Below are positions 1,132 to 33,159 of a DNA stretch of 33,406 bases, piece by piece. Source of the DNA: Clostridia bacterium (GTDB lineage Bacteria > Bacillota > Clostridia > Christensenellales > UBA1242); NCBI GenBank assembly GCA_028702545.1, contig JAQVOQ010000002.1:1-33406 (forward strand), read 5' to 3'. The stretch's first letter is position 1. Every line of letters begins with the position of its first letter. The notes under the pieces were generated by a model that was not told the origin of the DNA, ran no database searches, and saw only the letters and a list, made by a program, of their open reading frames with translations. Made by a program: the position numbers and the translations under genes.

Positions 1132-1776
1132 TTACCATTTAACCCTTAAAACTTTTTTAACAAAAATTTTTGCAAGGCTTAAGTCAAATTGAGTACCGGA
1201 ACAACGCTTTATCTCTTCCACTGCTAGTTTTTTAGAAAGAGCTTTTCTATATGGACGATTTGAAGTCATAGCATCATAGCTGTCTGCAAGAGCTATAATA
1301 CGAGCAGGTAAGCAAATTTGCTCACCACTTATTTGATTTGGATAACCTTGTCCATCCCATCTTTCGTGGTGTTCTAGCACAAATTGTGAAATTTTTTCTA
1401 AATCATTAGATAAATTTAGTATTTTGCTTCCCATTAAACTATGGGTTTTAATTTTTTCAAACTGAAGACTTGTTAATTTTTGTTTGCTATTTAGTATTTC
1501 ATCTGAAATACCTAATTTTCCAATATCGTGCATAAGTGCTGCAAGAGAAATTTGTCTTATAGTGTCTTTATCTAAGTTTACACTTTGAGCAAGTTTTTTT
1601 GCCAACTTACTTGTTCGTTTTGAATGTGAAAAATAGTTTACACTTTTATTTGCCAGCGCATGCATGATCATCTTTTTATCGTTTTCAATATTTTCAACAT
1701 AATCAGCATTATCAACGATAAATAGTAACATATCTTGTAGAATATTATTTTTTGTTGTAGCTATTTTTTCCATCAT
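1132..1776 (-). CDS. stand-alone HD-GYP domain phosphodiesterase
   Basis: 214 aa with the HD motif LMHDIGK and the HHERWDGQGYP signature. A GAGGA RBS is present. The gene starts only 24 nt after the sipW stop, so it is probably co-transcribed. Confidence 0.9.
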   Translation of the reverse strand: MMEKIATTKNNILQDMLLFIVDNADYVENIENDKKMIMHALANKSVNYFSHSKRTSKLAKKLAQSVNLDKDTIRQISLAALMHDIGKLGISDEILNSKQKLTSLQFEKIKTHSLMGSKILNLSNDLEKISQFVLEHHERWDGQGYPNQISGEQICLPARIIALADSYDAMTSNRPYRKALSKKLAVEEIKRCSGTQFDLSLAKIFVKKVLRVKW

Positions 1777-3728: not shown

Positions 3729-4358
3729 ATGAACTTATTTGATATTTTAAATAAAGAATACGAATTGAGAGTAAATCCAGCTGAAAAATTTGACCTTGTA
3801 AATGTTTCACGCTATTTTAATGAAGATGAAGACAGATACAAGCATATTTTGGGCGTTGCAGCACATATGAAGGCGCTAGTTGAACAACTTGGACTGGACG
3901 ATGAAGAAAAAGAAGACTTAATGAAAATAGCATATCTTCACGATATAGGATATTCTAAAAGAGTTATGTCAAGAGGATTTTATGCACTAGATAGTGCAAT
4001 TTTTGCACTTGAGAAAGCATTTGGCGAAACAGTTGCGCTTGCTATTATGTTTCACACCGCAGCTTACGGCGAGTCAAGGCACTTGAGTGTTAGCATTAAA
4101 TATATTTATGACAAAGCCAAATTGCTATTAAATGCAAATGAAAAAGCAAAACGATATGTTGAGCTTATAACCTATTGCGACCTTCATACCGAGAGCGATG
4201 GAAGACCGACGACAACGCCAAGACGCATATTTAAAATACTAGCAAGATATGAAAAAGGCAGTCCAACTTATAAGAACATAAAAGCACACAAAAGATATTT
4301 TAAAAATCTAACTAAAAAAATTAGAACAAGCGTTTTAAAAGAAAAAATTGTTAGTTAA
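3729..4358 (+). CDS. HD domain-containing phosphohydrolase
   Basis: 209 aa with H..HD spacing (HILGVAAHM ... AYLHDIGYS ... MFHTAAY). RBS is AGAGGGAAAAG. It lacks the GYP motif. Confidence 0.8.
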   Translation: MNLFDILNKEYELRVNPAEKFDLVNVSRYFNEDEDRYKHILGVAAHMKALVEQLGLDDEEKEDLMKIAYLHDIGYSKRVMSRGFYALDSAIFALEKAFGETVALAIMFHTAAYGESRHLSVSIKYIYDKAKLLLNANEKAKRYVELITYCDLHTESDGRPTTTPRRIFKILARYEKGSPTYKNIKAHKRYFKNLTKKIRTSVLKEKIVS

Positions 4359-6113: not shown

Positions 6114-6911
6114 TTAAAATAGTTTTTTAATATTTGGAGTGGGTATTTGGCGCTTAATAGGTATCCCTAGTTTTTTGGCTATCTCTATGCTTTGCTTTTT
6201 AAAGCACATATACCAAGCAACACAATAAACATTAGGGTCATCTGTTTCTAATTGTTGACGCTCCAAAAGCTCTTTTACTGTTTGCGGTTGCCTCAATATA
6301 ACATCATCTCCTAACCTCCAATTAGCGGGAGTCGAAACATCTTCTAAATCAGTTATTTGTAAGGCCTGTATAACCCTTCTTACTTCTTCTAAATTTCTGC
6401 CAGTTTTGTGCCCATAATATAATATGGCCCGTATTCTTGCATCGGGATCAATTACAAACAAGGTACGAATAGTTCTTGTATTGGTTTCACCGCGATGAAT
6501 CATCCCATACTTATTGCTTATTTCCATCGTAGGGTCTGCTATTATTGGAAAGTTTATGTTAATATCTTTTAAACCATTCCATTCTATTTGATAAATGCTC
6601 TGTATCCACTCTAAATGTGAATCTATTGAATCAACACTCAAACCAAGAAGCTCGGTGTTCATATCTTTAAATTGTTGTTGCATTGTTTGAAATATCATAA
6701 ACTCACTCGTACAAACGGGCTCAAAGTCACCAGGATGACTAAAAAACACAACCCACTTTCCAGCATAATCAAAAGGAAAGTTAACGGGTCCTTTTGTTGT
6801 TTCTGCTTTAAAAGGTGCAGCACGCTCTCCAATTAGAGGCATTTTATATATTATTGGAGAGCGACCAGTTTCGCCAGTTTGCATGGCGTCTGTTTGATTT
6901 TTAATATCCAT
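6114..6911 (-). CDS. Prx6-like peroxiredoxin paralog with a variant active site (PGDFEPVC)
   Basis: 265 aa with an AAGGAG RBS. The AhpC/TSA fold motifs FSHPGDFEPVCTSEF, TIRTLFVIDP and C-terminal YCVAWYMC (C-x5-C) are present. The Thr of PxxxTxxC is Glu (codon 6720-6722). There are N- and C-terminal extensions. Confidence 0.85.
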   Translation of the reverse strand: MDIKNQTDAMQTGETGRSPIIYKMPLIGERAAPFKAETTKGPVNFPFDYAGKWVVFFSHPGDFEPVCTSEFMIFQTMQQQFKDMNTELLGLSVDSIDSHLEWIQSIYQIEWNGLKDININFPIIADPTMEISNKYGMIHRGETNTRTIRTLFVIDPDARIRAILYYGHKTGRNLEEVRRVIQALQITDLEDVSTPANWRLGDDVILRQPQTVKELLERQQLETDDPNVYCVAWYMCFKKQSIEIAKKLGIPIKRQIPTPNIKKLF

Positions 6912-6928
6912 AAAAGCTCCTTGATTTG

Positions 6929-7747
6929 CTATTTATTATTTGTAGGATTGCGCCATATAACTTTTGCACTATTAGGTGAAGAATTTTTGTTTATATTAGT
7001 GCTGTTTTGATTTTGTTTAGCACCACTAGTATCTTTTTTTAGGCATAAATACCAATCTGGGCAATAAACATTATTATCTATAATATTTCTTTTTCTGCGG
7101 TCAATATCTCCATCTATTGTCATAGGAGGAGGTAGTATTATATCATCACCAGGCATCCAGTTTGCAGGAATATGAACATTTTCGGTGTCGTGCTTTATAA
7201 CAGCTGTTACAAGACGCCTAATTTCTTCTCCGGACTTGCCTACTTCTCTTGGGTAAATTTGAATAGCTCTAATTTTTCCGTTAGGGTCAATCAAAAAACC
7301 ACCTCTTACTGTTTCCGTCTTAGTTTCACCTCTTCTTAAAAGCCCGTATCTGCGAGCAATTTCCATACTGCTATCTGATATTAGAGGAAAAGTAATTATG
7401 GTATTTTTAAAATCTAAATACTCCATATTATAAATACTCTCAAGCCAAGCAACATGAGAAAACATAGAATCTATGCTTAATGCAACTATTTCTACATTTA
7501 ACTTTTTATAAAATTCTTCACTTTCCATAAGTTCAAATAGTTCTGTTGTGGCAACGGGTCCAAAGTCGGCAGGATATGAATAAAACAAAACCCATTTACC
7601 CTTGTAATCAGCTGGGAAATTAATTGGACCTTTTGTAGACTCGGCTTTAAAAGGTGGAGCTGGTTCTCCTATTAAGGGCAAAGTGTAGATAGGTGGTATT
7701 TGATAAGTATCCTGAGCGTTTATGTTTTTTTTATTTTTTTCATCCAT
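6929..7747 (-). CDS. peroxiredoxin-like protein lacking the peroxidatic Cys (PADFGPVATTE)
   Basis: ORF-track ORF trimmed to the ATG at 7747, which has an AAGGAG RBS. Motifs are YSYPADFGPVATTE (Ala codon 7550-7552 in place of the peroxidatic Cys, Gly in place of Thr), TVRGGFLIDP and YCPDWYLC. It ends 18 nt upstream of paralog 6114..6911. Confidence 0.85.
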   Translation of the reverse strand: MDEKNKKNINAQDTYQIPPIYTLPLIGEPAPPFKAESTKGPINFPADYKGKWVLFYSYPADFGPVATTELFELMESEEFYKKLNVEIVALSIDSMFSHVAWLESIYNMEYLDFKNTIITFPLISDSSMEIARRYGLLRRGETKTETVRGGFLIDPNGKIRAIQIYPREVGKSGEEIRRLVTAVIKHDTENVHIPANWMPGDDIILPPPMTIDGDIDRRKRNIIDNNVYCPDWYLCLKKDTSGAKQNQNSTNINKNSSPNSAKVIWRNPTNNK

Positions 7748-7909
7748 AAAAAAACTCCTTTTTACTAAGTTATATATGAAAAAAGTATAAAAACAGTTAA
7801 CATAAAAATTAATATTGAGTAAAAAAGAGCCTAAAACAGCCTGTTTTGGTGCGAATCTTTTAAAAATGCACATTTTTTGATTAAATTAGTAGATTTATTT
7901 TCTAAAAAT

Positions 7910-8849: not shown

Positions 8850-8886
8850 TTGTGAATAAATAACTAAAGGCAGGGACTTGAGTTTT

Positions 8887-9906
8887 ATGCAAATAAAAAA
8901 AATAAAAGCATCAGGCGAGTTTAGGCACCGTTACATACAAATTAATGATGCAATATATACATTTAATCAAGCATTAATATCTTTTGCTAAAAAAGCAGAT
9001 GAAATTAGAAAAGTTCATTATTCAATGGATATCAAAAATGAAATACCGGTTACCGCTAAGTTCATTTATCCATCTGTTGAAGTTATGCAAAAAGAGATAG
9101 ATGCCAACATTAAAAATATAATTGAAAACTTGCATTTAAAAGCAAGTGATAAACAAATAGACGAGTTTTTTTCAGTATATAAATTACAAGATTACTTTTC
9201 AAATAAACTAACATACAGTATGTTAGCACAAGAAGAAAGAGGATATCAGTTCGAAGACAATAACTATTATATGAGTGCTATAAAATATAATAGGGATAAG
9301 CTTAGGTCGTTTAATTTAAAACCAGCGCCAGCACCGCAAGAAAGAAAGTTGTATAGAATTCAAAAACATAAAATTTATGAAGAGATGTCAAATGAAAATG
9401 AGTTTATAAAAAGCAATGTTCCTTTTAATCAAATAAATTATTTAAAAGGCTTATATAATGTATTTGTAAGAGAAAATGGAGTATGTTCGGAATTTTCTAA
9501 CGCATTTAGTTACATTTTAAACAAGATAGATATAGTAAGTTACAAAGTTTTGGTAAGTAAATTTATAAATAATACAGAGCTGTTCCACGCTTATAATTTA
9601 ATTGAGTTTGTAACAAAAGGACAAAAAAAATATTATGCTTGTGATTTAACCAGAAGCGTTTGTAACAAAGAAAAATACAATAATTTAAAAGTTAAAAATA
9701 GAATTCTAGGTTTTGGAATGGGAAGTGACCAATTAGAAGATACCAACAACTCTAAAATTCTATCTATTCAAAAATATGGCGAAAATTTACAAAAAGAATT
9801 TTTTCCACAAGTAGAAGAAGACATTTTAATAAACGATTTATCCGAAAGGTTGATAGAAAAACTTTTAAAAACTAATGATTTAGTTGAAGAGAAGGAAATA
9901 AATTAA
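8887..9906 (+). CDS. transglutaminase-like (Cys-His-Asp papain-fold) protein, paralog 1
   Basis: The ATG at 8887 is preferred: the TTG at 8878 abuts the RBS, and MQIKKIK parallels MEIKKVV of paralog 2. Core is NGVCSEFSNAF (Cys codon 9484-9486) ... FHAYNLIEF ... YYACDLT. No signal peptide. Confidence 0.75.
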   Translation: MQIKKIKASGEFRHRYIQINDAIYTFNQALISFAKKADEIRKVHYSMDIKNEIPVTAKFIYPSVEVMQKEIDANIKNIIENLHLKASDKQIDEFFSVYKLQDYFSNKLTYSMLAQEERGYQFEDNNYYMSAIKYNRDKLRSFNLKPAPAPQERKLYRIQKHKIYEEMSNENEFIKSNVPFNQINYLKGLYNVFVRENGVCSEFSNAFSYILNKIDIVSYKVLVSKFINNTELFHAYNLIEFVTKGQKKYYACDLTRSVCNKEKYNNLKVKNRILGFGMGSDQLEDTNNSKILSIQKYGENLQKEFFPQVEEDILINDLSERLIEKLLKTNDLVEEKEIN

Positions 9907-11003
9907 TGGAAATTAAAAAAGTTGTAACTGATAAGTTTTATAAAAATCAATATATTAATTTTGGTGGAAATATTTTTGAAATTAATTATTTTAAAGCGAT
10001 GAACCCATCATTAATTGGTGCGTTAGAAGAGGTTGAGGCAATATTAAAAAATTCTAAAGACAATTTAAAGGCGGCAAAATTTATAGAAAAAATAACCTTT
10101 AAGCCTTTTCCATCTAATAAAAAAATGATAGAAACTATTAATAAAAAATGCGAAAGTATTTGTGATTTTTTACAGTTAAATGAAATAAAAGGTGAGGATG
10201 CTAAAATAGTAAAATCACTCGTATTATTTAATTATCTTTCAAAAAATACAAGATATAATATGACCGTGCAAGAGTCGATAGATATTGATAATTTTGAAAA
10301 AATAATTAATAAAATGGAAAATAAACTAATTAAACTAAAAGAAGAACATCAAAATTTAGAAATTCTTAAAAATCTAATGGAAGATAAAAATGATAAAAAA
10401 ATTCTTTCAGCACAAATTGAGCATGTAAAAAAAGATTTTATATCACTATCAAACCAAAGCAATAAGTGTCTTATAGAGTTTTTGAATGAATTTTATATAA
10501 AAGCCATCTATAGCACTTTAATATATAATCAAGGTGTTTGCTCAGGATTTAGTTATACATATCAACTTTTATTAAAAACTGCAGGCATCAATGCATTTTC
10601 GTTAGAAGCATATAAAGAAGGTGAAGCTACGGGGCATGCATTTAACTTACTAGAATTTAAACAGGGAAATAAAACAACTTATCATATAGCGGATGTAACC
10701 TCGGCAATTGCGCAAGGTTCAAAAGATAGTAAAACAATTTTAAAGTCTTTTAGTATACCAAAAGAAAAGTATTTTTATATGATTAATCAAAATGTAGCGA
10801 CAATAAAAAAATTATCAAGTCTTAAAAAAGATTCGCGAACTACATTTTTTGAAAATATCTATACCTCAACTTTATGTGGCTTAATATATAACAAGATAAA
10901 TAATAAAGAAGTATTAGAAAAACAAAAATTAAAAGCACTAATTTTTATTGACAAGCATAGCAAAATTAAAGAGCAAATATTAAACGATGAAATAATAAAA
11001 TAA
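9906..11003 (+). CDS. transglutaminase-like (Cys-His-Asp) protein, paralog 2
   Basis: Its start overlaps the upstream stop (TAATG at 9904-9908). Core is QGVCSGFSYTY (Cys codon 10539-10541) ... GHAFNLLEF ... YHIADVT. The N-terminal half is helical. Confidence 0.8.
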   Translation: MEIKKVVTDKFYKNQYINFGGNIFEINYFKAMNPSLIGALEEVEAILKNSKDNLKAAKFIEKITFKPFPSNKKMIETINKKCESICDFLQLNEIKGEDAKIVKSLVLFNYLSKNTRYNMTVQESIDIDNFEKIINKMENKLIKLKEEHQNLEILKNLMEDKNDKKILSAQIEHVKKDFISLSNQSNKCLIEFLNEFYIKAIYSTLIYNQGVCSGFSYTYQLLLKTAGINAFSLEAYKEGEATGHAFNLLEFKQGNKTTYHIADVTSAIAQGSKDSKTILKSFSIPKEKYFYMINQNVATIKKLSSLKKDSRTTFFENIYTSTLCGLIYNKINNKEVLEKQKLKALIFIDKHSKIKEQILNDEIIK

Positions 11004-11035
11004 ATATTGAAATGTAAACTTGAGGGGAAAAAAAT

Positions 11036-12154
11036 ATGAAGCAAGAAGAAAAAGTAATACCAGTAGTAGCTGACGAATTTTACAAAGATTCTTATGTCGG
11101 TATAGGATATGATATTTTTGAGTCACAATATGCACTAGATAGGTATCCCGAGCATCAAGAAGCAATTTTAAAAGCTATTGAAGTAGTTAAACCTGCAAAA
11201 AATGTTATAAAATTGACATATAGGGCTTTTCCAAGCAATAATAAAATGATAGAAATTTTATTGAATAAGCGTGAAACAATTTATAAAAACTTGAATTTAG
11301 ATAAGATTGTTGGCAAAGGTTCGGATATAATAAAAGCATGGGTTTTATATGATTATATATCTTTAGGTTTGTTTTATAATATGGCAACTATGGAAGAAGT
11401 TGTAACAAAAATAAAAGGCGTTGAAAAAATATCTGAGACTTACGAAGAGTCATTTAAAAAACAAAATTTATTTGCTAAACTTTATAAATTAGCAAAAACA
11501 GAAGAAGAAAAACTTAAAATAGCTACTATGTGGGAAAAATTAGGAAGAAAAATATCAAATATTGAAACAGATTATTACAAAAAAGAAACTCAAGCGGATA
11601 ACCGTACTTATTTAAGACAACTTTATAGCGCACTTATAAGAGGCAAAGGAGTTTGTGCCGAGTTTAGTTATGTTTATCAATTTTTACTAGAAGGAATTGG
11701 CATAAAAAGTATATATACTATAATTTATGCGGAGGGTTCTAAATTTGCGCATGCAATTAATTTAGTTGAATTTAAAAAAGATAACAAAAAAGCATATTAT
11801 ATTGTAGATCTTACTGCGGGCAGTTCTTACGCTAAATCGTGCGAGGGCTCATATTTTAATTATCATGGTTTTGCAGTACCAAAAGATAAATATTTTGCTT
11901 TAGAAGATAATACGCAAAAGATTTGTGCAGCGGGTTATTTTAATGGATTAGATATTGATTTAAATAAAAAAATAGTAAAATTTTCATCAAGAGAATCAAC
12001 TATGGAAATACTAAGAAGAAAGATTGTAAATACTTTTGATTTCCAAAAGGAATATGAAAAAGCTGCAAGATTTTCACTATCAAGTTATTCTGAATTTGGT
12101 ACGGGCAAAACTAAAGAGCCTCAAAAAGAATATAAACAACAAGAAATTTTATAA
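11036..12154 (+). CDS. transglutaminase-like (Cys-His-Asp) protein, paralog 3
   Basis: GAGGGGA RBS. Core is KGVCAEFSYVY (Cys codon 11654-11656) ... AHAINLVEF ... YYIVDLT. The N-terminal motif FYKDSYVGIGYDIFE parallels FYKNQYINFGGNIFE of paralog 2. Confidence 0.8.
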   Translation: MKQEEKVIPVVADEFYKDSYVGIGYDIFESQYALDRYPEHQEAILKAIEVVKPAKNVIKLTYRAFPSNNKMIEILLNKRETIYKNLNLDKIVGKGSDIIKAWVLYDYISLGLFYNMATMEEVVTKIKGVEKISETYEESFKKQNLFAKLYKLAKTEEEKLKIATMWEKLGRKISNIETDYYKKETQADNRTYLRQLYSALIRGKGVCAEFSYVYQFLLEGIGIKSIYTIIYAEGSKFAHAINLVEFKKDNKKAYYIVDLTAGSSYAKSCEGSYFNYHGFAVPKDKYFALEDNTQKICAAGYFNGLDIDLNKKIVKFSSRESTMEILRRKIVNTFDFQKEYEKAARFSLSSYSEFGTGKTKEPQKEYKQQEIL

Positions 12155-12576: not shown

Positions 12577-13266
12577 ATGAACAATAATATAATAAGCGTA
12601 ATAAAAGACTATGATAACTACGCGACAATAACGAAAGAATATGATAATTACTTGCAATCAATTCAACAAACTACGCCAAAATATTTAAATGCAATAATAA
12701 TTATGGCGGTAGAAAAAGTTATGAGAATTCACAGTTTAGAAACATATAATCATGCCGAAAATATGATTAAAATTGTAACGCCTTTAGCTAAAGCACTTAA
12801 TTTAAGCAAAGAGGATTCAAAAAAGATAAAACTAATCGCAAAATTGCATGATATTGGTAAACTTTCAATAAGTCAAAGTATTTTAAACAAAAAATCACCA
12901 CTTGATGATAAAGAGTGGAATATTATTAAAACTCATCCTGTTGAATCATACAAAATAGTAAGGTGCATTGATTGCTCCATAGATGTGGCAAAAGATATTT
13001 TGCATCACCACGAGCGCTATGATGGCACAGGATACCCCAATAAATTAAAAGGTGAGGAAATACCATACTTGTCAAGAGTGATAGCTGTTGTTGATGCTTA
13101 TGAGGCTATGTTAAATGGAAGGATATATAAACAGCCAAGGCCAAATGCTGAGGTTATAGCTGAAATTAAGCATTGTTCGGGCACGCAATTTGACCCCAAT
13201 ATCGTAAAAGTTTTTGTAAAAACATTTGACAAACAAAAAAATAAAGAGGACTTTAAAAACCTTTAA
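12577..13266 (+). CDS. stand-alone HD-GYP domain phosphodiesterase (second copy)
   Basis: 229 aa with KLHDIGK and HHHERYDGTGYP. AAGGAG RBS at 12566-12571. Confidence 0.9.
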   Translation: MNNNIISVIKDYDNYATITKEYDNYLQSIQQTTPKYLNAIIIMAVEKVMRIHSLETYNHAENMIKIVTPLAKALNLSKEDSKKIKLIAKLHDIGKLSISQSILNKKSPLDDKEWNIIKTHPVESYKIVRCIDCSIDVAKDILHHHERYDGTGYPNKLKGEEIPYLSRVIAVVDAYEAMLNGRIYKQPRPNAEVIAEIKHCSGTQFDPNIVKVFVKTFDKQKNKEDFKNL

Positions 13267-13317: not shown

Positions 13318-13980
13318 CTAAACTTCTTTATAACAAAGCCACCAGTCTTTGCATTCATATTTTCCTTCTTGCATACCGCTTAGCCTTGCATCAATTTGTT
13401 GATTTGATTGAGGAGGCGGATAAACCATAACATTTTTGCCAAGCCACAGGTTATTAGGAAAGTTCTCAGGTGCTGCCATTTTATATTTATCTGACATTTG
13501 AAGTGCGTTTAAAGACCTTAAGACCTCGTCAACACTCCTGCCAATTTCTGGCGGATAGGTCATGGTTAGTCTAATAACTCCTCTTGGATCAATTATAAAA
13601 AGTTTTCTTACAGTTTTAGCACCCTTTTTAGCATGAACCATGCCTAACTCTTTTGCAACATTTCCTAAGGGGTCTTCAATAATAGGAAAGGGCACAGCCG
13701 TATTAGCATTTTCTTCAATCCACTCCACCCATTTAAAATGTGGGCCTAATCCATCAACGCTTAAGCCTAAAAGGTTGGCACCTAGTGCTTTAAATTCATC
13801 CACTCTATTTGACATAGCAACAAATTCTGTAGTGCAAATAGGCGTGAAGTCGCCAGGATGACTAAATAAAATTAGCCATTTACCAGCATAATCCTGAGGT
13901 AAGTTTTTAATGCCATCGGTCGTGCTAACTTGCATTTGTGGCAGTTCATCGCCTAGCATTAACTGCTTTTCTTCGTTCAT
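13318..13980 (-). CDS. peroxiredoxin, Prx6-like with a canonical active site and C-terminal C-x5-C
   Basis: 220 aa with FSHPGDFTPICTTEF (intact PxxxTxxC), TVRKLFIIDP and the C-terminal YECKDWWLCYKEV. AGGAGA RBS. Confidence 0.9.
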   Translation of the reverse strand: MNEEKQLMLGDELPQMQVSTTDGIKNLPQDYAGKWLILFSHPGDFTPICTTEFVAMSNRVDEFKALGANLLGLSVDGLGPHFKWVEWIEENANTAVPFPIIEDPLGNVAKELGMVHAKKGAKTVRKLFIIDPRGVIRLTMTYPPEIGRSVDEVLRSLNALQMSDKYKMAAPENFPNNLWLGKNVMVYPPPQSNQQIDARLSGMQEGKYECKDWWLCYKEV

Positions 13981-14097: not shown

Positions 14098-14943
14098 TTA
14101 ATTATTGCCGCCAGCATTTTGACCATAAGGTGGGCCAGCAATATTATTTATAATCCTATTGATTATTTCTGTTACTGCAACGCTTGAGGCCTCTGCATTT
14201 AGCAGTTTATATAATTCCATCATGTTCATACTAGCTAAATATTCTTCATGTCCTAAAAGCGTTGGAAACCTGTTTATTATTTTTTTGATGTAACAATATT
14301 TTGCGGGAGTAACATTTATATTTTGCTCAAAATGTTGTTTTAAGGCATTAAATTCTTCTATTGCCTCTTCATCATACTCTTCTACAATAATATTTCCATT
14401 AAGTCCATTGCTATTTAAATATGTGTTTACCATTGCTTGCAAATTATTTTTATAAGCATTTTCAACATTTTTATTTTTATTTTTTACAGAAAGCATTATT
14501 GCATTTTCAAAAGAATTTTGTAAGTAGCCATCATTTTGTGCTTTTGTAAGCACTGCATTTAAGGCAAGGTTATAGTTTAATCCAGGCAAAGTTAAGCCGG
14601 CTAAGAAAGTTGCTCCGTCGTCATTTATACCAGTTGCTCCAACTACAATCGCATCTGAGTTTAATGTTAATTCAATGCTTGGATTAATATCAAGTGTAAG
14701 CGTAGTATAAGCAGATTCAAGATTTGGCATAAGTGCGTTAAACATAACAAAAGCTATTAATACGAATGCCATAACAGCGGGTACAAGCCTAAAAACTAGT
14801 GAGCGTTTTGACGCCTTAGCTTTTGCTAGTTGATTACTCATTACAACAATGTCGGACTTTTGTCTAACTTTATCTATTACATCGGGTATGGGTAGTGAGT
14901 TTAATTCAATATTTAATTGTTTTATTAATTGTTTTTTATTCAT
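14098..14943 (-). CDS. membrane anti-sigma factor with an RsgI-type juxtamembrane (DINPS) domain
   Basis: 281 aa. The start overlaps the sigma stop by 8 nt. It has a short cytoplasmic N-terminus and one TM (LVPAVMAFVLIAFVMF). The ectodomain begins TLTLDINPSIELTLNSD...INDDGATFL (DINPS at 14677-14691), like B. subtilis RsgI ..IDINPSVEM..LNDEG. Confidence 0.75.
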   Translation of the reverse strand: MNKKQLIKQLNIELNSLPIPDVIDKVRQKSDIVVMSNQLAKAKASKRSLVFRLVPAVMAFVLIAFVMFNALMPNLESAYTTLTLDINPSIELTLNSDAIVVGATGINDDGATFLAGLTLPGLNYNLALNAVLTKAQNDGYLQNSFENAIMLSVKNKNKNVENAYKNNLQAMVNTYLNSNGLNGNIIVEEYDEEAIEEFNALKQHFEQNINVTPAKYCYIKKIINRFPTLLGHEEYLASMNMMELYKLLNAEASSVAVTEIINRIINNIAGPPYGQNAGGNN

Positions 14944-15463
14944 TACCCTTAACCTCCTTTTGTAATTTTTTAATGGCTTTACTGTAAATCCATAATACAG
15001 TTCCTAAGGGTTTGTCTAATTGAGTAGCAATTTCTCTATGTTTATATCCTAAAGTATATAGGGTCACCACCTGTCTTTCTTCAAAGTCTAATATTGTAAG
15101 CAATTTTTTTAAGAGCATATTATTTATCATACTGTCTTCATTACTTGAACTAAATAGATACTCATTTTCAACTTCATCTGTAATAATTTCTCTCTTTCTT
15201 CTATTATATGTATTTATTGCTATATTGCGAGAAAGGCTCATTATCCAAGCTTGTGCATTTGTATTTGCTCTATATTGGCCAATAGTTTTCCTTATTTTAA
15301 TATATGCGTCTTGCATTAATTCTTCCGCTATACCATAGTCTTTTATTATTGAAAATATAACAAAGAAAACCTGCTTTTTTGTTTGATTATAAACTGTTTC
15401 AAAAGCTTGTTCGTCACCTGTTTGCATTTTTTGCATATTTTGTTCTAATAGTTGCTTATCCAA
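14936..15463 (-). CDS. ECF-type sigma-70 family RNA polymerase sigma factor
   Basis: 175 aa. Region 2 (AFETVYNQTKKQVFFVIFSIIKDYGIAEELMQDAYIKI) and the region 4 HTH (LGYKHREIATQLDKPLGTVLWIYSKAIKKL) are recognisable. TTG start with an AAGGA RBS. Confidence 0.9.
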   Translation of the reverse strand: MDKQLLEQNMQKMQTGDEQAFETVYNQTKKQVFFVIFSIIKDYGIAEELMQDAYIKIRKTIGQYRANTNAQAWIMSLSRNIAINTYNRRKREIITDEVENEYLFSSSNEDSMINNMLLKKLLTILDFEERQVVTLYTLGYKHREIATQLDKPLGTVLWIYSKAIKKLQKEVKGNE

Positions 15464-15496: not shown

Positions 15497-15525
15497 ATTC
15501 TATCAAAACATTAAATTCTTAACAA
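15497..15525 (-). promoter_or_regulatory. candidate sigma-A promoter of the sigma/anti-sigma operon
   Basis: On the minus strand, TTGTTA (15520-15525) is followed by a 17-nt spacer and TGaTAGAAT (TAGAAT at 15497-15502). Confidence 0.5.
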
Positions 15526-15596
15526 ACAAATAACATACAAAACTTTTGTTACACTAATAATAACAATCAAAATGAAGTGTTTATTGGTAAAACTAT

Positions 15597-15625
15597 TAAA
15601 AAGCCACATAAAATGCAGCTTTTTA
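15597..15625 (-). terminator. intrinsic terminator after the 414-aa coiled-coil gene
   Basis: The minus-strand RNA forms AGCUGCAU-UUU-AUGUGGCU followed by UUUU. The G.U pairs make it specific to the minus strand. Confidence 0.6.
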
Positions 15626-15655
15626 AAGGATAAAACAAAATGTTAATTTGTATTG

Positions 15656-16900
15656 TTATGGTCTATTAGTTTGCCAAGTAGCTTGGATAGAATCTAAAAT
15701 GCTATCTATTTGCTCTTCGGTTAAATTGTTTTGAAAGTTTTTCCACTGAGCCTTTACTTGTTCTGATCTTTCAACTTTATTTGCTTGCCAATCTTCATAT
15801 TTATCTAATGCTGCACCTTTTTTTGTTTGTGCTTGAAGTTGCAAAGTATTTAAATATAGTTGTCTTGCACCAAGTGTTGATTGTAACTCGCTTAGTGTAA
15901 TATTAAGTGTAGCAATTTGATTTGTTAGTAAAACAACTTCTGCTTGCAAGTCACTAGCCGTTAATTCAGCCGTAGCAATTTGAGTAGTTATGCTTACTAT
16001 TTCAGTTTCTAAATCAGTAACAGCTAATTGATTTGCAGCAAGTTGAGTGTCATAAATTGCTAAATCTTCAACCGTATATTCTGTCGTATCAATAGCTTCA
16101 AAATTTACAAGTTCAGCTTGTGCTAATATTAAACTTGCATTAGCCGCATCTAATGTAGCATTAAGTGTAATAACTTCGTCTTGTGCTAGTATTAAATTTG
16201 CGTTAGCCGAATTTAATGTAAGATTAAGCGCATCAATTTGAGTTTGAGTCGCAATAATTTGTGAATCTAAATATTCAATATAACTTTCAACTTCTCTAGC
16301 ACCTCTTAACATATCCATCATATCTTTTACTGATAAGTTAAGGGCTTGTTCTGTTGTTACATCAGGATAAACGGCTTGAATACTCCTAATTAATTTTAGG
16401 TTTCCAGCGCCTACTCCTAAAGTTTCTGCCTCTGCGATAATGTCAGCCATATCAAGGTCTGTCATTATCACTCCATAAATACCATTGTTTTTGAAAAAGT
16501 TTTCTAAATGAGTTTTAACCCTATCTCTAAGCCTAGCTTGTAGTCTTATATTTTGAGATTCTAGTACGGTTGTAATTGTAATCGCATTAGGATCATCCGC
16601 TAAAGCTTCTGGGTCTAAGTAGCCATATTCTATGGCAAGTTCTACAATTCTCTCAGTAGCTTCTTCAATGCTTAAACCGATTAAATTATCAACCTCTCCT
16701 AGTAAAATTGTTTCGCCATCATCATTTGCTGCTGTTACGCTAACAACCTCGTTCGCGCCGTCAGTTACAAATTGTACACTTGGGTTAATGTCTACGCTAA
16801 CGTATGCCATAACTGAACCTATATTAGAGTTAAATACATAACCATAAAGTAAGCCTGTAATTAAAACCATAGGCAATATAATTGCTAATATTTTTTTCAT
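15656..16900 (-). CDS. membrane-anchored protein: RsgI-type DINPS domain fused to a long coiled coil, with no anti-sigma domain
   Basis: The ATG at 16900 is 8 nt after GGAGG (16909-16913). MKKILAIILPMVLITGLLYGYVF forms the TM, followed by VSVDINPSVQF...ANDDGETIL (DINPS at 16778-16792) and about 200 aa of A/L/Q/T-rich heptad repeats. Confidence 0.8.
   Translation of the reverse strand: MKKILAIILPMVLITGLLYGYVFNSNIGSVMAYVSVDINPSVQFVTDGANEVVSVTAANDDGETILLGEVDNLIGLSIEEATERIVELAIEYGYLDPEALADDPNAITITTVLESQNIRLQARLRDRVKTHLENFFKNNGIYGVIMTDLDMADIIAEAETLGVGAGNLKLIRSIQAVYPDVTTEQALNLSVKDMMDMLRGAREVESYIEYLDSQIIATQTQIDALNLTLNSANANLILAQDEVITLNATLDAANASLILAQAELVNFEAIDTTEYTVEDLAIYDTQLAANQLAVTDLETEIVSITTQIATAELTASDLQAEVVLLTNQIATLNITLSELQSTLGARQLYLNTLQLQAQTKKGAALDKYEDWQANKVERSEQVKAQWKNFQNNLTEEQIDSILDSIQATWQTNRP
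16105..16230 (-). repeat. imperfect 63-bp (21-codon) tandem duplication inside the coiled-coil gene
   Basis: Protein units LNLTLNSANANLILAQDEVIT and LNATLDAANASLILAQAELVN. A 48-nt core differs at 7 positions by eye. Confidence 0.6.
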
Positions 16901-16984
16901 AATAATTTCCTCCATATTTTTATTTTTTTAGTCTACGAACAATAAAACCATCTCAACATAGTTTTTATTGGCAATATTAAAAAA

Positions 16985-17013
16985 ATAATAAAAAACCCGA
17001 TAAATGATCAGGC
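16985..17013 (-). terminator. intrinsic terminator after the 280-aa coiled-coil gene
   Basis: The minus-strand RNA forms CCUGAU-CAUUU-AUCGGG followed by UUUUUUAUUAUUUUU. Confidence 0.6.
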
Positions 17014-17031
17014 TTTTTATTTTAGAAGTAT

Positions 17032-17874
17032 TTAATTTTGAAGAAATTGTATTCCATATTTAATTCTATATTGATTACTTAAAGTTTCACTAATTCTTAT
17101 TGTGGCTTTAACTTTATTCATTTTTTGTGTCATTGCTCGGTACTCTTTACTTACTTGTAACATTGATTCATTAAGTTCAACTAGTGATGTTTCTAAGGCA
17201 TCAATCTCAGCATAGTAAGCAGTTAATTCTTCTTCTGTATAAGTAGTAGTATCTGTTTCATAAAGAGTTGCAAGTTGAGTCTCTATTTGAGTGATTTGTT
17301 CATCAAACTTTATCATGTGCATTTCATTTTTATAAAGTTCGCCTTGCTGTAAACCTGCTGCCTTTTCATAAAAAGAAAAAGTTTTTTCTGCAAAAATTTC
17401 CTCAGCTGTATTGTTATATTGGAGTTGTTTTCTGGTTTGAAATTGTTCTCTTGCCATAATGCCCTCGGTTAGTTGCATGCGTAGTTGAGTCATTACTTTT
17501 AATGCTTCAAAATCAGCAATTTGAGTTTCTAATTCAGCAATTTGAGCGTTGTAAGCGACTAGTTCCTCTTCAGTATAGTTTGTAATGTCTCTTGCTAACA
17601 ACTCGTCCAAACTTGCTTGAAGGATTAAAAGTTCAGCATAAGTTTGAGTTTGTTGATTTAAGTAATAATTCAATTTTTGCATAGCAGATAAATTTTTTAC
17701 CTCTTCCTCTTCTTCTAGTAACCCTTTTTTCTTTTTCTGTTTGTTAATACCATTTTGAGACTGACCGCTCATGTAAGCAGTGTTTGTCATAGTTTGTTCA
17801 GCAGCAATCATTGGTGTAGCAACTGCACCACCTGCAAAAACGACTGGCAATAACAATGATAACAATATTTTCAT
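17032..17874 (-). CDS. secreted or membrane-anchored coiled-coil protein (280 aa)
   Basis: The ATG at 17874 is 6 nt after GGAGGT (17881-17886). It has the signal/anchor MKILLSLLLPVVFAGGAVATPMIAA and two copies of the module TNYTEEELVAYNAQIAELETQI / TTYTEEELTAYYAEIDALETSL, which also occurs in gene 15656..16900. Confidence 0.75.
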   Translation of the reverse strand: MKILLSLLLPVVFAGGAVATPMIAAEQTMTNTAYMSGQSQNGINKQKKKKGLLEEEEEVKNLSAMQKLNYYLNQQTQTYAELLILQASLDELLARDITNYTEEELVAYNAQIAELETQIADFEALKVMTQLRMQLTEGIMAREQFQTRKQLQYNNTAEEIFAEKTFSFYEKAAGLQQGELYKNEMHMIKFDEQITQIETQLATLYETDTTTYTEEELTAYYAEIDALETSLVELNESMLQVSKEYRAMTQKMNKVKATIRISETLSNQYRIKYGIQFLQN

Positions 17875-18004
17875 TTTTTTACCTCCATATTTTTTCATAC
17901 TTTTCGTATGTACTAATCATTAAACAATTTAAAAGCTAATTTTATTGTTAAAATATTAAAAAAAATTTTATTTTTAAAAAGTAGCAAAGAACGCTCAATA
18001 TACT

Positions 18005-18078: not shown

Positions 18079-19905
18079 ATGAACTCAAACACAAGAATAA
18101 GACAAATATTTTTATTTTCTTTAATAATTATGTTTTTTGTTGCAGGATTTTTTAATTTCTTAGTTAACAATAATTTGGTTGTTAGAGCATGGGACGGTGT
18201 GGTTAGTTCAACTCCCGTTGGAGCGGGTACGGAGGAAAGCCCTTATCTAATTTCAACAGCTGAAGAACTTTTTTGGTTAAGCACAGAAACTAACGAAGGT
18301 AATTTTTTAGGTGGCGAGTATTTTAAACTTACCGCTAATATTAACCTAGAAGATTATGAATGGCAACCAATTGGCGACTATGGTTCAGGAGACAGTACGA
18401 CGGCTTTTAGTGGCAACTTTGATGGCGACAACTTTACTGTTTATAATTTTAGCTTTAGAGATGATGAAAATATATTTCAGTATAGCGGTTTATTTGGTTA
18501 TGTTTATTCAGCGACTATAGAAAATTTAAAAGTTAAACAAATAGATTTGGACCTAGACTTAACTAATTATAATAATGATTTATATGCTGGAGCGCTAGCA
18601 GGATATGTAACTAGCTCTACGATATCCAATATTATAAGCGATGGAACGATAGATGTGTCAAATGGAACTCAAGCAGTTTATGCTGGTGGTATAGTTGGCT
18701 TATGTGAAAATTCAAGTTTAGAAATTTTACAAAATTTAGTAATAATAATTACAAATCAAGTTGCTGATGTTTATGCTGGAGGTTTAGTTGGCAAAACAAA
18801 TTATGCAACAATTGAAAAAAGTTATAACGATGATGCAATTATAATTAACTCAATAAATTCAGCCTTTGTCGGCGGACTAGTAGGTGAGGCCAGTCAAACA
18901 AATTTTCTAAAAGTTTATAACGATAAAAATATATCTGTTACAAGCGATATGATAAATGTTGGGGGACTAGTAGGTCTTTTGTCTAGCGATGCACTTAGTG
19001 AGGTTATTAACACGACTAAGTTTGTTTATAATAGAGGAACAATTATACTATCAGCTTTAGACGAACTAGAGGCCAATTTATTTATAGGTGGTTTAGTAGG
19101 ACAAACAACAGAAGATAACACAATTAGTTATGCCTATAATGCTGGACAAATAGGAGATGGAACGCTAGATGTAATAAATAAAGGCTCCCTTGTCGGCGCG
19201 TTAAACGCAATAGATGCAAGTGTTATGTATAGTTATTATGATAGAGAAAAAGCAGATTTTGGAGTAGATGGCATTGGTATAAATAGCGGAACTATTACAG
19301 ATGTTTACGATTTATCAACTACTAATATGCAATATTCTTACAGTTATGAAGGTGGCACAGAATGGAATTTTAATGATATTTGGAGAATGGCAACCAATCT
19401 TAATAGCAGATATCCAATACTAAGATATGTGGGCAACTACGCCGTGCAAGTTCAAACAGCGGGGTCTGGTACTGTTAGTTCAACAGGATTAAACTTTTAC
19501 AAAGTTGGTTACAGTCAAATATATACAATTGTGGCCAAAGAAGGTTGTCAAATTAAACAAATAATTTATCAAAATGAAATACTAAGTGAATATGCGGGAA
19601 GAACGAACCTAAACTTTACGGTAGAAAGCGATGGGTCTTATTCGCCGTCTACAATTAACTTGGCTGTTGAATTTGAAACGATTCCTTTTTATAAAACTAG
19701 CAGATTTTACTTTTTATTAGGCGTTGGATTACTTATTCTACTCATGATTGTTGGAACAATAATAATTAATTACAGATACGCAATTAAAATGGATAAAATA
19801 ATGGAAGAAAAGAAAAAAGGAATAAATATAGATGCAGTAGTTGAAAAGAACACTAAAAAATCAGAAGAACCAAAAAAGAAAGAAGAACCAAAAAAGAAAG
19901 AATAA
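18079..19905 (+). CDS. GLUG-motif repeat surface protein with an N-terminal signal/TM and a C-terminal TM anchor
   Basis: 608 aa with repeated units YAGALAGY, YAGGIVGL, YAGGLVGK, FVGGLVGE, NVGGLVGL and FIGGLVGQ. The C-terminal TM is FYFLLGVGLLILLMIVGTIIINY, followed by a K/E-rich tail. Confidence 0.85.
   Translation: MNSNTRIRQIFLFSLIIMFFVAGFFNFLVNNNLVVRAWDGVVSSTPVGAGTEESPYLISTAEELFWLSTETNEGNFLGGEYFKLTANINLEDYEWQPIGDYGSGDSTTAFSGNFDGDNFTVYNFSFRDDENIFQYSGLFGYVYSATIENLKVKQIDLDLDLTNYNNDLYAGALAGYVTSSTISNIISDGTIDVSNGTQAVYAGGIVGLCENSSLEILQNLVIIITNQVADVYAGGLVGKTNYATIEKSYNDDAIIINSINSAFVGGLVGEASQTNFLKVYNDKNISVTSDMINVGGLVGLLSSDALSEVINTTKFVYNRGTIILSALDELEANLFIGGLVGQTTEDNTISYAYNAGQIGDGTLDVINKGSLVGALNAIDASVMYSYYDREKADFGVDGIGINSGTITDVYDLSTTNMQYSYSYEGGTEWNFNDIWRMATNLNSRYPILRYVGNYAVQVQTAGSGTVSSTGLNFYKVGYSQIYTIVAKEGCQIKQIIYQNEILSEYAGRTNLNFTVESDGSYSPSTINLAVEFETIPFYKTSRFYFLLGVGLLILLMIVGTIIINYRYAIKMDKIMEEKKKGINIDAVVEKNTKKSEEPKKKEEPKKKE
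19864..19899 (+). repeat. perfect 18-bp tandem duplication encoding (EEPKKK)x2
   Basis: GAAGAACCAAAAAAGAAA occurs at 19864-19881 and again at 19882-19899, just before the stop codon. Confidence 0.95.
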
Positions 19906-32294: not shown

Positions 32295-33159
32295 ATGGCA
32301 ACAGCTTTTAAGGTTGAGGGATTAAAATTTAGATATCCAAAAGGCACAGAAGATGTTATTTGTGGAGTAGACTTTGAAGTTAATGAGGGCGAAGTATTTG
32401 GACTACTTGGTCCAAGTGGCGCAGGTAAAAGTACAACGCAAAAGGTTATGATAAAATTATTAGAAGGCTACGAGGGTAAAATTGAATATTTTAATGCCGA
32501 CTTAGACGAGCTCAACACGAGCTATTACGAAGAGATTGGTGTTGGTTTTGAAATGCCCGTGCATTTCAATAAGTTAACGGCAATGGAAAATATTAACTTT
32601 TTTTTTAAATCTTTATAAAAGCCGTGCTAACAGCGAAGAGTTGTTAAAAAAAGTAGGGCTTTATGAGGACAAGGACAAAAAAGTTGGCGAGTTTAGTAAA
32701 GGTATGAAGGTTAGACTTAATTTTGTTAGAAGCCTGCTAAACAATCCAAAAGTACTATTTTTAGATGAAGTTACAAACGGACTTGATCCAATGAATGCAA
32801 GAATTATAAAAAATCTTATATTAGAGTTCAAACATAATGGTGGAACAGTATTTTTGACTACTCACCTTATGAAAGATGTTGAAGAGTTGTGTGACAGAGT
32901 TGCGTTTATGGATAAAGGATTAATAGTAGAAACTAATACTCCACGAAATTTAAAATTAAAATACGGCAAAAAACAAATCACCGTGGAATATAAAAATGGT
33001 AAAGGTAGTAAAACCAAAGTGTTTGAAATGGAAAACATCGGCGAAAATGCTGAGTTTTTAAAGTTATTAAAAGAAAAGAATATAGAAACTATTCACTCGG
33101 GCGAAACGGGTTTAGACGAAATATTTATTAAAATTACGGGGGCGAAAGATGTTAAATAA
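32295..33159 (+). pseudogene. ABC transporter ATP-binding protein interrupted by a frameshift in a T9 tract
   Basis: Fragment 1 (32295..32618) carries Walker A GPSGAGKST. Fragment 2 (32641..33159, +1 frame) carries the signature FSKGMKVRL and Walker B VLFLDE. Removing one T from T9 (32598-32606) gives the continuous sequence ...ENINFFLNLYKSRANSEELLKKVGLYED... Confidence 0.8.

Follow-up and report, generated by a model that had tools for sequence, protein, structure and literature searches.

The question raised by this locus is how a sigma factor of the extracytoplasmic function (ECF) type comes to be paired with a membrane protein whose outer part looks like that of RsgI, the anti-sigma factor of SigI. 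The window, namely the whole stretch of 33,406 nt that was analysed (Clostridia bacterium, assembly GCA_028702545.1, contig JAQVOQ010000002.1), is ordinary chromosome with a G+C content of 30%, carrying among others pheS/pheT, folD, ndk, signal peptidase I and peroxiredoxins, and a run search finds the sequence in DNA metagenome runs from landfill, manure and wastewater. On its minus strand an ECF sigma gene runs directly into a gene for a 281-aa membrane protein, and the system looks like RsgI outside the membrane and like an ECF pair within the cell. Our analysis makes it probable that the two genes form an ECF sigma/anti-sigma pair, in which a single-pass anti-sigma factor has the SEAL domain, the juxtamembrane domain of RsgI, as its entire extracytoplasmic part and works by the mechanism proposed below. 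The features of the pair are as follows, TM denoting transmembrane.

14936..15463, minus strand: ECF sigma factor gene, 175 aa, TTG start (Pfam and NCBIfam)
14098..14943, minus strand: anti-sigma candidate, 281 aa, with N-terminus, one TM helix, SEAL domain and short G/N/P tail
14803..14943, minus strand: cytoplasmic segment, residues 1-47, two short helices 3-15 and 22-29 (AlphaFold2 model)
14731..14802, minus strand: TM helix, residues 48-71 (sequence reading; helix 49-71 in the AlphaFold2 model)
14149..14709, minus strand: SEAL beta-sheet core and helical subdomain, residues 79-265 (profile against PDB, Foldseek)
14677..14691, minus strand: D85-I86-N87-P88-S89 hairpin (alignment and AlphaFold2 model)

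The sigma gene and the overlapping SEAL-domain gene

The sigma protein belongs to the ECF family, as the initial annotation had read from its regions 2 and 4 only. In fact it matches Sigma70_r2 (2e-07), Sigma70_r4_2 (2.6e-06) and also r4 in Pfam, and passes the NCBIfam model TIGR02937 sigma70-ECF with 66.7 bits against a cutoff of 42.9, while none of the named equivalog models of NCBIfam comes near its own cutoff. Its open reading frame (ORF) has an AAAGGA Shine-Dalgarno sequence 8 nt upstream of the TTG start, and the protein start read from this TTG, MDKQLLEQ, is kept in the relative L082 at 54% identity. A more distant counterpart, the ECF sigma of Mariniplasma anaerobium, is 39% identical and has the sigma-4 helix DKPLGTVLWIY in common with it. 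The 281-aa ORF begins with an ATG preceded by AAGGAGG and overlaps the sigma ORF by exactly 8 nt (GGTAATGAATAA), thus the size of the sigma factor, the overlap and the position of the DINPS codons at 14677-14691 all agree with those first reported.

The second protein is a member of the SEAL-domain family. Its sole Pfam match is PF23750 RsgI_M over residues 79-199 (E=1.3e-22, 81 bits against a cutoff of 25.3), and the profile of its family aligns to RsgI sequences in PDB with E-values of 1e-15 to 1e-20 overall, for example to RsgI6-PD 8HER_B over profile positions 87-249 (E=1.6e-20) and to the B. subtilis RsgI 8T9N (...IDI[GGG]NPSVEMALNSDYEVIELTPLNDEGQ...) with E=3.3e-19. The AlphaFold2 model, built on 85 relatives with a mean pLDDT (predicted local distance difference test) of 87, falls on the periplasmic fold of RsgI: a Foldseek search of PDB gives RsgI domains in all of its first ten places, led by 8T9N (E=3.8e-07, TM-score on target 0.74-0.78) and including 8HDJ/8HEQ (RsgI2), 8HER (RsgI6), 8HEP (RsgI1) and 8U9O (RsgI9), while rank 11 drops to E=0.1, and the TM-score on target for the SEAL/helical region ranges from 0.55 to 0.78. 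The observed match to RsgI is far beyond chance, and both the RsgI-like juxtamembrane domain and the likeness to the B. subtilis protein that the initial annotation had pointed out are hereby confirmed. Moreover, since the alignment to RsgI periplasmic domains uses up the ectodomain, it is just such a domain as a whole, with the SEAL core and the helical subdomain and nothing appended; the helices of the model extend to residue 269, followed by a G/N/P-rich tail of about 12-15 residues.

On the inner side the protein departs from RsgI, again as had been supposed. No match to RsgI_N (PF12791) or zf-HC2 is found in Pfam even at E<=1, and a purpose-built RsgI_N hidden Markov model (HMM) is likewise negative on this protein; in place of such a domain, the model has the short helical segment expected from the sequence, with helices 3-15 and 22-29 separated by a conserved P20-D21 and joined to the TM helix by a linker of low confidence. 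The motif KAKASKR at the cytoplasmic side of the TM helix indicates an N-in orientation. The proline P20 is nearly invariant among ECF-linked SEAL proteins and also occurs in the non-SEAL anti-sigma candidates of Mariniplasma, and residues 1-47 would accordingly be a candidate sigma-binding module. A profile of the N-terminal segment searched against PDB sequences gave a single match, to a repeat-lectin, which was rejected as spurious.

The hairpin in which RsgI is cut is preserved in detail. In the model, as assigned by DSSP, the first two strands of the beta-sheet core, 80-85 and 89-94, are joined by the loop 86-88 (I86-N87-P88) at a pLDDT of 97, and the bond predicted to be scissile, N87|P88, corresponds to 14680-14685. 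Among the 85 relatives no substitution is seen at N87, P88 or N107, and D85, S89 and D109 reach a conservation of at least 90%. In PDB, the RsgI chains that represent the C-terminal fragment after cleavage have as their first residue the very proline aligned to P88. In RsgI2 the conserved polar residues near the cut are D95, N97, P98, S99, N117, D119 and R218 (PMC10328401), for which the counterparts here are D85, N87, P88, S89, N107, D109 and K215, with an offset of 10 for the first six. Autocleavage has been demonstrated for the B. subtilis RsgI, three clostridial RsgIs and a SEAL-PepSY protein (PMC10556640 and its preprint) and for RsgI1, 2, 3, 4 and 6 of C. thermocellum (PMC10328401), and the same preprint reports it for a TM-SEAL protein of P. 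brassicae, a relative of Acholeplasma. Every N-P SEAL domain tested so far in these accounts was cleaved. By analogy, the 281-aa protein would be expected to cleave itself at N87|P88 and then to undergo intramembrane proteolysis.

Distribution of the pairing and its promoter

To see how far the pairing extends, species-representative genomes were scanned with a pattern derived from the hairpin, and the ORFs of the 80 resulting loci were classed by phmmer and by the RsgI_N HMM built from PF12791-bearing matches; because the pattern came from the window family itself, the sample is biased toward that family and the figures below are not a census. Directly after a window-like ECF sigma of 159-223 aa (phmmer E-values as low as 1e-46) stand 33 SEAL proteins without RsgI_N, at gaps of -59 to +15 nt but mostly -8 to +8, the most negative values being due to over-extended ORF starts. 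They come from Clostridia, Lachnospiraceae, Christensenellaceae, Erysipelotrichia, Izemoplasmatales and Paracholeplasma, and the closest relatives of the module are found in Izemoplasmatales and Acholeplasma-like bacteria. SEAL proteins with an RsgI_N-like N-terminus behave differently, as 24 of 26 follow an ORF of 210-300 aa.

The two kinds of upstream ORF are separated by their Pfam matches. Among the 46 short ones (45 from the loci and the window sigma) Sigma70_r2 is found in 43 and Sigma70_r4_2 in 41, whereas the long, SigI-type ones of 223-283 aa have Sigma70_r2 in 27/27 and any region 4 in 0/27; region 2 without a region-4 match is the signature of SigI according to Casas-Pastor et al. 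(PMC7826278). The SEAL proteins follow the same division: when the 33 ECF-linked ones are taken with that of the window, RsgI_M is present in 34/34 and RsgI_N and zf-HC2 in 0/34 each by Pfam, with PepSY domains added in 7/34, and of the 26 proteins that the purpose-built HMM finds in the loci, none is a member of the window family or is coupled to a phmmer-confirmed ECF sigma. In a nearest-neighbour test of the SEAL domains, the closest relative falls in the same class for 37 of 40 ECF-linked, 23 of 26 RsgI and 20 of 23 anchor-only proteins, hence the classes go back to old lineages and did not arise by recent swaps. Therefore the pairing of an ECF sigma with a SEAL protein is real, but it is common in related bacteria and not a one-off, and the suggestion of an unusual domain recombination in the initial annotation does not hold.

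Two further observations concern the loci themselves. The locus L005 (CAZVNH010000361.1), binned as 'uncultured Thermoplasmatales archaeon', has a bacterial-type 171-aa ORF with a 4-nt overlap with a SEAL protein as well as the promoter motif described below, and its archaeal label is probably binning contamination. In two Paracholeplasma / Acholeplasmataceae metagenome-assembled genomes (L020:3457-6691 and L046:3457-6697) an ECF sigma is followed by two SEAL proteins of 437-456 aa, the first with a cytoplasmic N-terminus and the second with a lipobox (LAAC/LVGC), both with a large helical domain at the C-terminus and possibly related to the P. brassicae protein on which Brogan et al. made their test.

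Besides the sigma operon, the window holds two neighbouring transcription units that share its promoter, and these units, their terminators and the promoters are given here.

15656..16915, minus strand: second SEAL protein, here called the partner, 419-aa ORF; RsgI_M 9.4e-22
17032..17898, minus strand: secreted or anchored coiled-coil protein, 288-aa ORF
15596..15626, minus strand: terminator-like hairpin after the second SEAL gene
16987..17021, minus strand: terminator-like hairpin after the coiled-coil gene
15562..15587, minus strand: ECF-type promoter of the sigma operon, CCAATAAA-N13-TTGTT
16946..16971, minus strand: ECF-type promoter of the partner gene, CCAATAAA-N13-TGGTT
17923..17948, minus strand: ECF-type promoter of the coiled-coil gene, ACAATAAA-N13-TTGTT
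15497..15525, minus strand: housekeeping-type promoter candidate, TTGTTA-17-TAGAAT with a TG extension, by consensus match only

The motif CCAATAAA-N13-T(T/G)GTT has only three matches in the 33.4 kb, against 0.2 expected and with none of 100 shuffles reaching three, and these precede each of the three transcription units, the sigma operon, the partner and the coiled-coil gene, which are divided by the terminator-like hairpins. Its conservation in front of the sigma or the partner gene extends to at least 15 loci: it is present upstream of the sigma gene in L082, L010, L068, L013, L044 and L087, at the orthologous partner position in L082, L085 (Ca. Izimaplasma HR2), L001, L003, L011, L018, L021, L033, L067 and L068, and ahead of one or both of these genes in L025; Mariniplasma anaerobium and a relative have TTGTAT as the second element. 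In a weight-matrix scan 19 of 23 matches precede sigma or SEAL genes, a partly circular result because the matrix was built from part of the matches that it scores, those in L002, L013, L044 and L087 being independent. Altogether this suggests that the window sigma uses CCAATAAA-N13-TnGTT promoters, its own included. The housekeeping-type candidate lies between the ECF promoter and the sigma start, and a GTTTTGATAnAATAT stretch there is kept in L082.

The partner has its probable true start at M6 (16900), giving 414 aa, the length also called in L081, and the coiled-coil gene at M9 (17874), giving 280 aa; both starts are deduced from the Shine-Dalgarno positions and from gene calls on the source contig. 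The model of the partner (pLDDT 86) has a TM helix at 2-31, a SEAL domain with the hairpin I43-N44-P45 (DINPS), the helical subdomain and then a coiled coil made of helices 196-274 and 282-378, about 80 and 97 residues long, and it has no cytoplasmic segment. A TxYTxEEL.AY motif is common to this coiled coil and the coiled-coil protein (BLASTP E=1e-4). The trio of partner, sigma and anti-sigma genes is kept amid differing chromosomal surroundings and therefore behaves as a unit. The second SEAL gene, the shared promoter and the fact that the ectodomain is a bare RsgI periplasmic domain had all been missed by the initial annotation. The gene at 18079-19905 on the plus strand, divergent from that of the coiled-coil protein, encodes 608 aa with a hydrophobic segment at the N-terminus and a GLUG motif, and a 612-aa counterpart occupies the equivalent place in L082; the ECF-type motif is absent on the strand of this gene.

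Mode of sigma control

What has been observed is the architecture, the conservation of residues and the pattern of promoters, and upon these the following course of events may be proposed by analogy with RsgI (PMC10556640, PMC10328401, PMC12203970). Residues 1-47 of the 281-aa protein would hold the sigma factor inactive at the membrane. The SEAL domain would cut itself constitutively between N87 and P88, as RsgI and the tested SEAL homologues do, with the two pieces staying joined through their shared beta-sheet, until a regulated pull or destabilisation removes the 194-residue C-terminal fragment, so that only about 16 residues still project from the membrane as a stub. The next cut, inside the TM helix, which contains P55, could be made by a RasP/RseP-type site-2 protease, and cytoplasmic proteases would free the sigma factor, which in turn would transcribe its own operon and the two neighbouring genes for surface coiled-coil proteins, one of which is itself SEAL-tethered. 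As for the signal, a peptidoglycan defect is unlikely, since the module has its closest relatives in lineages which, like Izemoplasma (PMC8397711), have been described as lacking a wall.

Compared with known systems, the proposed pair combines features of two of them. As in B. subtilis SigI/RsgI (8T9N; Brogan et al. 2023, PMC10556640), the single-pass anti-sigma candidate is encoded by a gene overlapping the sigma gene, and a juxtamembrane SEAL domain of the same predicted fold has a D-I-N|P-S hairpin and would leave a stub of about 16 residues up to the predicted cut; the window system differs in its ECF sigma of regions 2 and 4, in the missing RsgI_N, in having no long disordered region after the SEAL domain and in its wall-less relatives. 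With RsgI1/2/6/9 of C. thermocellum (8HEP, 8HEQ/8HDJ, 8HER, 8U9O; PMC10328401) the alignment spans the whole ectodomain, including the second helical subdomain, and the conserved polar residues near the cut have their counterparts; however, the window protein has no C-terminal carbohydrate-binding or sensor module, and its sigma is of the ECF and not the SigI type. With the classical ECF systems of regulated intramembrane proteolysis, such as RseA/DegS/RseP, RsiW/PrsW/RasP and RsiV, it shares the ECF sigma and would share the co-transcribed single-pass anti-sigma, the autoregulated promoter and the expected site-2 step, while here the substrate would make its own site-1 cut, with regulation falling on the dissociation of the fragment; moreover, its cytoplasmic segment is much shorter than the class I anti-sigma domain and does not bind zinc. 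An experimental precedent for cleavage in this branch is BN853_16100 of P. brassicae, with a TM helix, a SEAL domain and a helical domain, which autocleaves in E. coli according to the preprint of Brogan et al. (Fig. S13). This protein of a Mollicute lineage is likewise a TM-SEAL protein without RsgI_N and with a helical C-terminal part, yet it is described as having no sigma-binding domain. A profile search seeded with the Paracholeplasma paralogues gave no match bearing the name or locus tag of the P. brassicae protein; in the Paracholeplasma assemblies the sigma-coupled and anchor-only types adjoin each other after the ECF sigma.

Several points weigh against the proposed anti-sigma factor and its mechanism. 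Residues 1-78 match no Pfam domain at E<=1 and no known anti-sigma domain in Pfam or PDB, no site-2 protease gene is seen among the 35 ORFs scanned in the 33-kb window, and there is no RNA run among the sequencing runs holding the sequence, all of which are DNA metagenomes; the bias of the locus sample and the circularity of the weight matrix, given above, are to be added here. The signalling of B. subtilis RsgI needs its disordered region, and here neither the model nor the alignment shows a long disordered region or a ligand-binding or sensor module after the SEAL domain. In addition, Brogan et al. describe a related Mollicute TM-SEAL protein as having no sigma-binding domain.

One could therefore take the 281-aa protein for a co-transcribed SEAL-tethered surface protein, with the sigma factor being controlled transcriptionally or by another protein, and the unmatched N-terminus, the judgement of Brogan et al. 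on the Mollicute protein and the occurrence of SEAL proteins without any cytoplasmic part in the same loci would all fit. We regard this as unlikely, because the translational coupling to an ECF sigma is kept across distant taxa in the 33 loci, and because the sigma-coupled class always carries an additional conserved cytoplasmic segment that the uncoupled class does not. In fact the sigma-coupled proteins have a cytoplasmic N-terminus of about 30-60 residues with the pattern M-x-K-x-x-h-x-x-x-I/L ... T/I-P-D-I/V-L-x-x-I-K, while the uncoupled partner proteins have an anchor only, which in some of them is a lipobox, making them lipoproteins. Mariniplasma anaerobium offers a comparison: in AP024412.1 (L086:2354-5032), and in L087, the same ECF group and promoter are found, and the 353-aa protein whose gene overlaps the sigma gene by 8 nt in Mariniplasma has an N-terminus similar to that of the window protein, a TM helix and an ectodomain that is not of the SEAL type, whereas the SEAL protein is a separate coiled-coil lipoprotein under the same promoter. 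Thus the N-terminus and the TM helix stay with the sigma factor even though the ectodomain differs, and an anti-sigma role of the 281-aa protein is suggested.

Granting such a role, the SEAL domain could still be a passive spacer, either uncleaved or cleaved to no effect, and a conventional site-1 protease or a conformational signal would bring about activation. For this speak the missing disordered region or binding module to transmit force, and RsgI8, which has no N-P site (Chen 2023, PMC10328401), so that the fold can exist without cleavage. Yet the invariance of N87, P88 and N107 in the relatives, with D85, S89 and D109 nearly as constant, would be surprising if the cleavage site were not under selection, and all N-P SEAL domains tested so far, according to the published and preprint results, do cleave, which makes the passive version quite improbable. 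It is finally conceivable that the pair is nothing but a diverged SigI/RsgI pair, with which it has in common the ectodomain, the gene order and the overlapping genes, and NCBI gives even to anchor-only SEAL proteins the name 'anti-sigma-I factor RsgI family protein'. However, a sigma factor of 175 aa with r4_2 and r4 contrasts with the 27 SigI-type sigmas of 223-283 aa, which have region 4 in none, and RsgI_N is absent by Pfam and by the purpose-built HMM. Since two features that define the SigI/RsgI family were looked for and neither the SigI-type sigma nor RsgI_N was found, we reject this version as extremely improbable and do not count the pair as a member of that family.

Surroundings and implications

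Several gene families around the module have more than one member. Three paralogues of 1-Cys peroxiredoxin (AhpC-TSA) lie at 6114-7873 and 13318-13980 on the minus strand, two of them in tandem and 47% identical, while the third, 32-35% identical to these, directly adjoins the anti-sigma candidate gene in an arrangement given as convergent. Three HD-domain proteins are encoded at 1132-1776 (minus), 3729-4358 (plus) and 12577-13266 (plus); two share the HD_5 type and an identity of 40%, and one of them sits two genes from the anti-sigma candidate gene, a placement also seen in L082. Three paralogous ORFs follow one another at 8878-12154 on the plus strand, 342-372 aa long and with 24-37% identity; one has a weak transglutaminase-like DUF553 match, and L082 and L083 have four or five such copies in tandem. 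The gene of an ABC-transporter ATPase at 32295-33159 (plus) is broken into two ORFs just past a run of nine Ts (about 32600), a frameshift that either stems from an assembly error in the homopolymer or marks a true pseudogene.

As to novelty, most occurrences of the SEAL domain are reported to be in anti-sigma factors with an RsgI-like organisation (PMC10556640). The pairing of an ECF sigma with a SEAL protein is apparently undescribed, in that no paper linking SEAL or RsgI_M to ECF sigmas was found in the searchable literature, although the domain table of Brogan 2023 may include such cases. Both terms occur together in two papers, one in Sci Adv that has Brogan 2023 among its references and one on RsgI of C. 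thermocellum. A warning for annotation follows, as the name 'anti-sigma-I factor RsgI family' is given to SEAL proteins whose partner is an ECF sigma or which lack any cytoplasmic part; for the Mariniplasma lipoprotein, which belongs to the latter, the NCBI name is probably misleading.

A wider possibility, which we hold to be doubtful, is that the three genes make up a self-monitoring surface circuit, in which the sigma factor targets SEAL-tethered coiled-coil proteins and the SEAL joint of the anti-sigma factor serves as a sentinel. If this were true, any force or condition tearing off SEAL-tethered proteins would also pop the ectodomain of the anti-sigma factor, thus turning on the sigma factor and replacing the surface layer, and it would be a bacterial mechanosensitive homeostasis loop in probably wall-less cells, independent of peptidoglycan and SigI.

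To sum up, work on SEAL autoproteolysis has so far been confined to walled Bacilli and Clostridia, where it serves as the site-1 step in SigI/RsgI signalling. Our analysis yields a testable promoter, CCAATAAA-N13-TTGTT, a small conserved regulon and a short, unclassified sigma-binding candidate. The locus and its relatives suggest that the self-cutting joint has also been wired to ECF sigmas, the largest family of alternative sigma factors, and extend the reach of SEAL to Izemoplasma- and Acholeplasma-like lineages, where neither cell-wall defects nor cellulose can be the signal.

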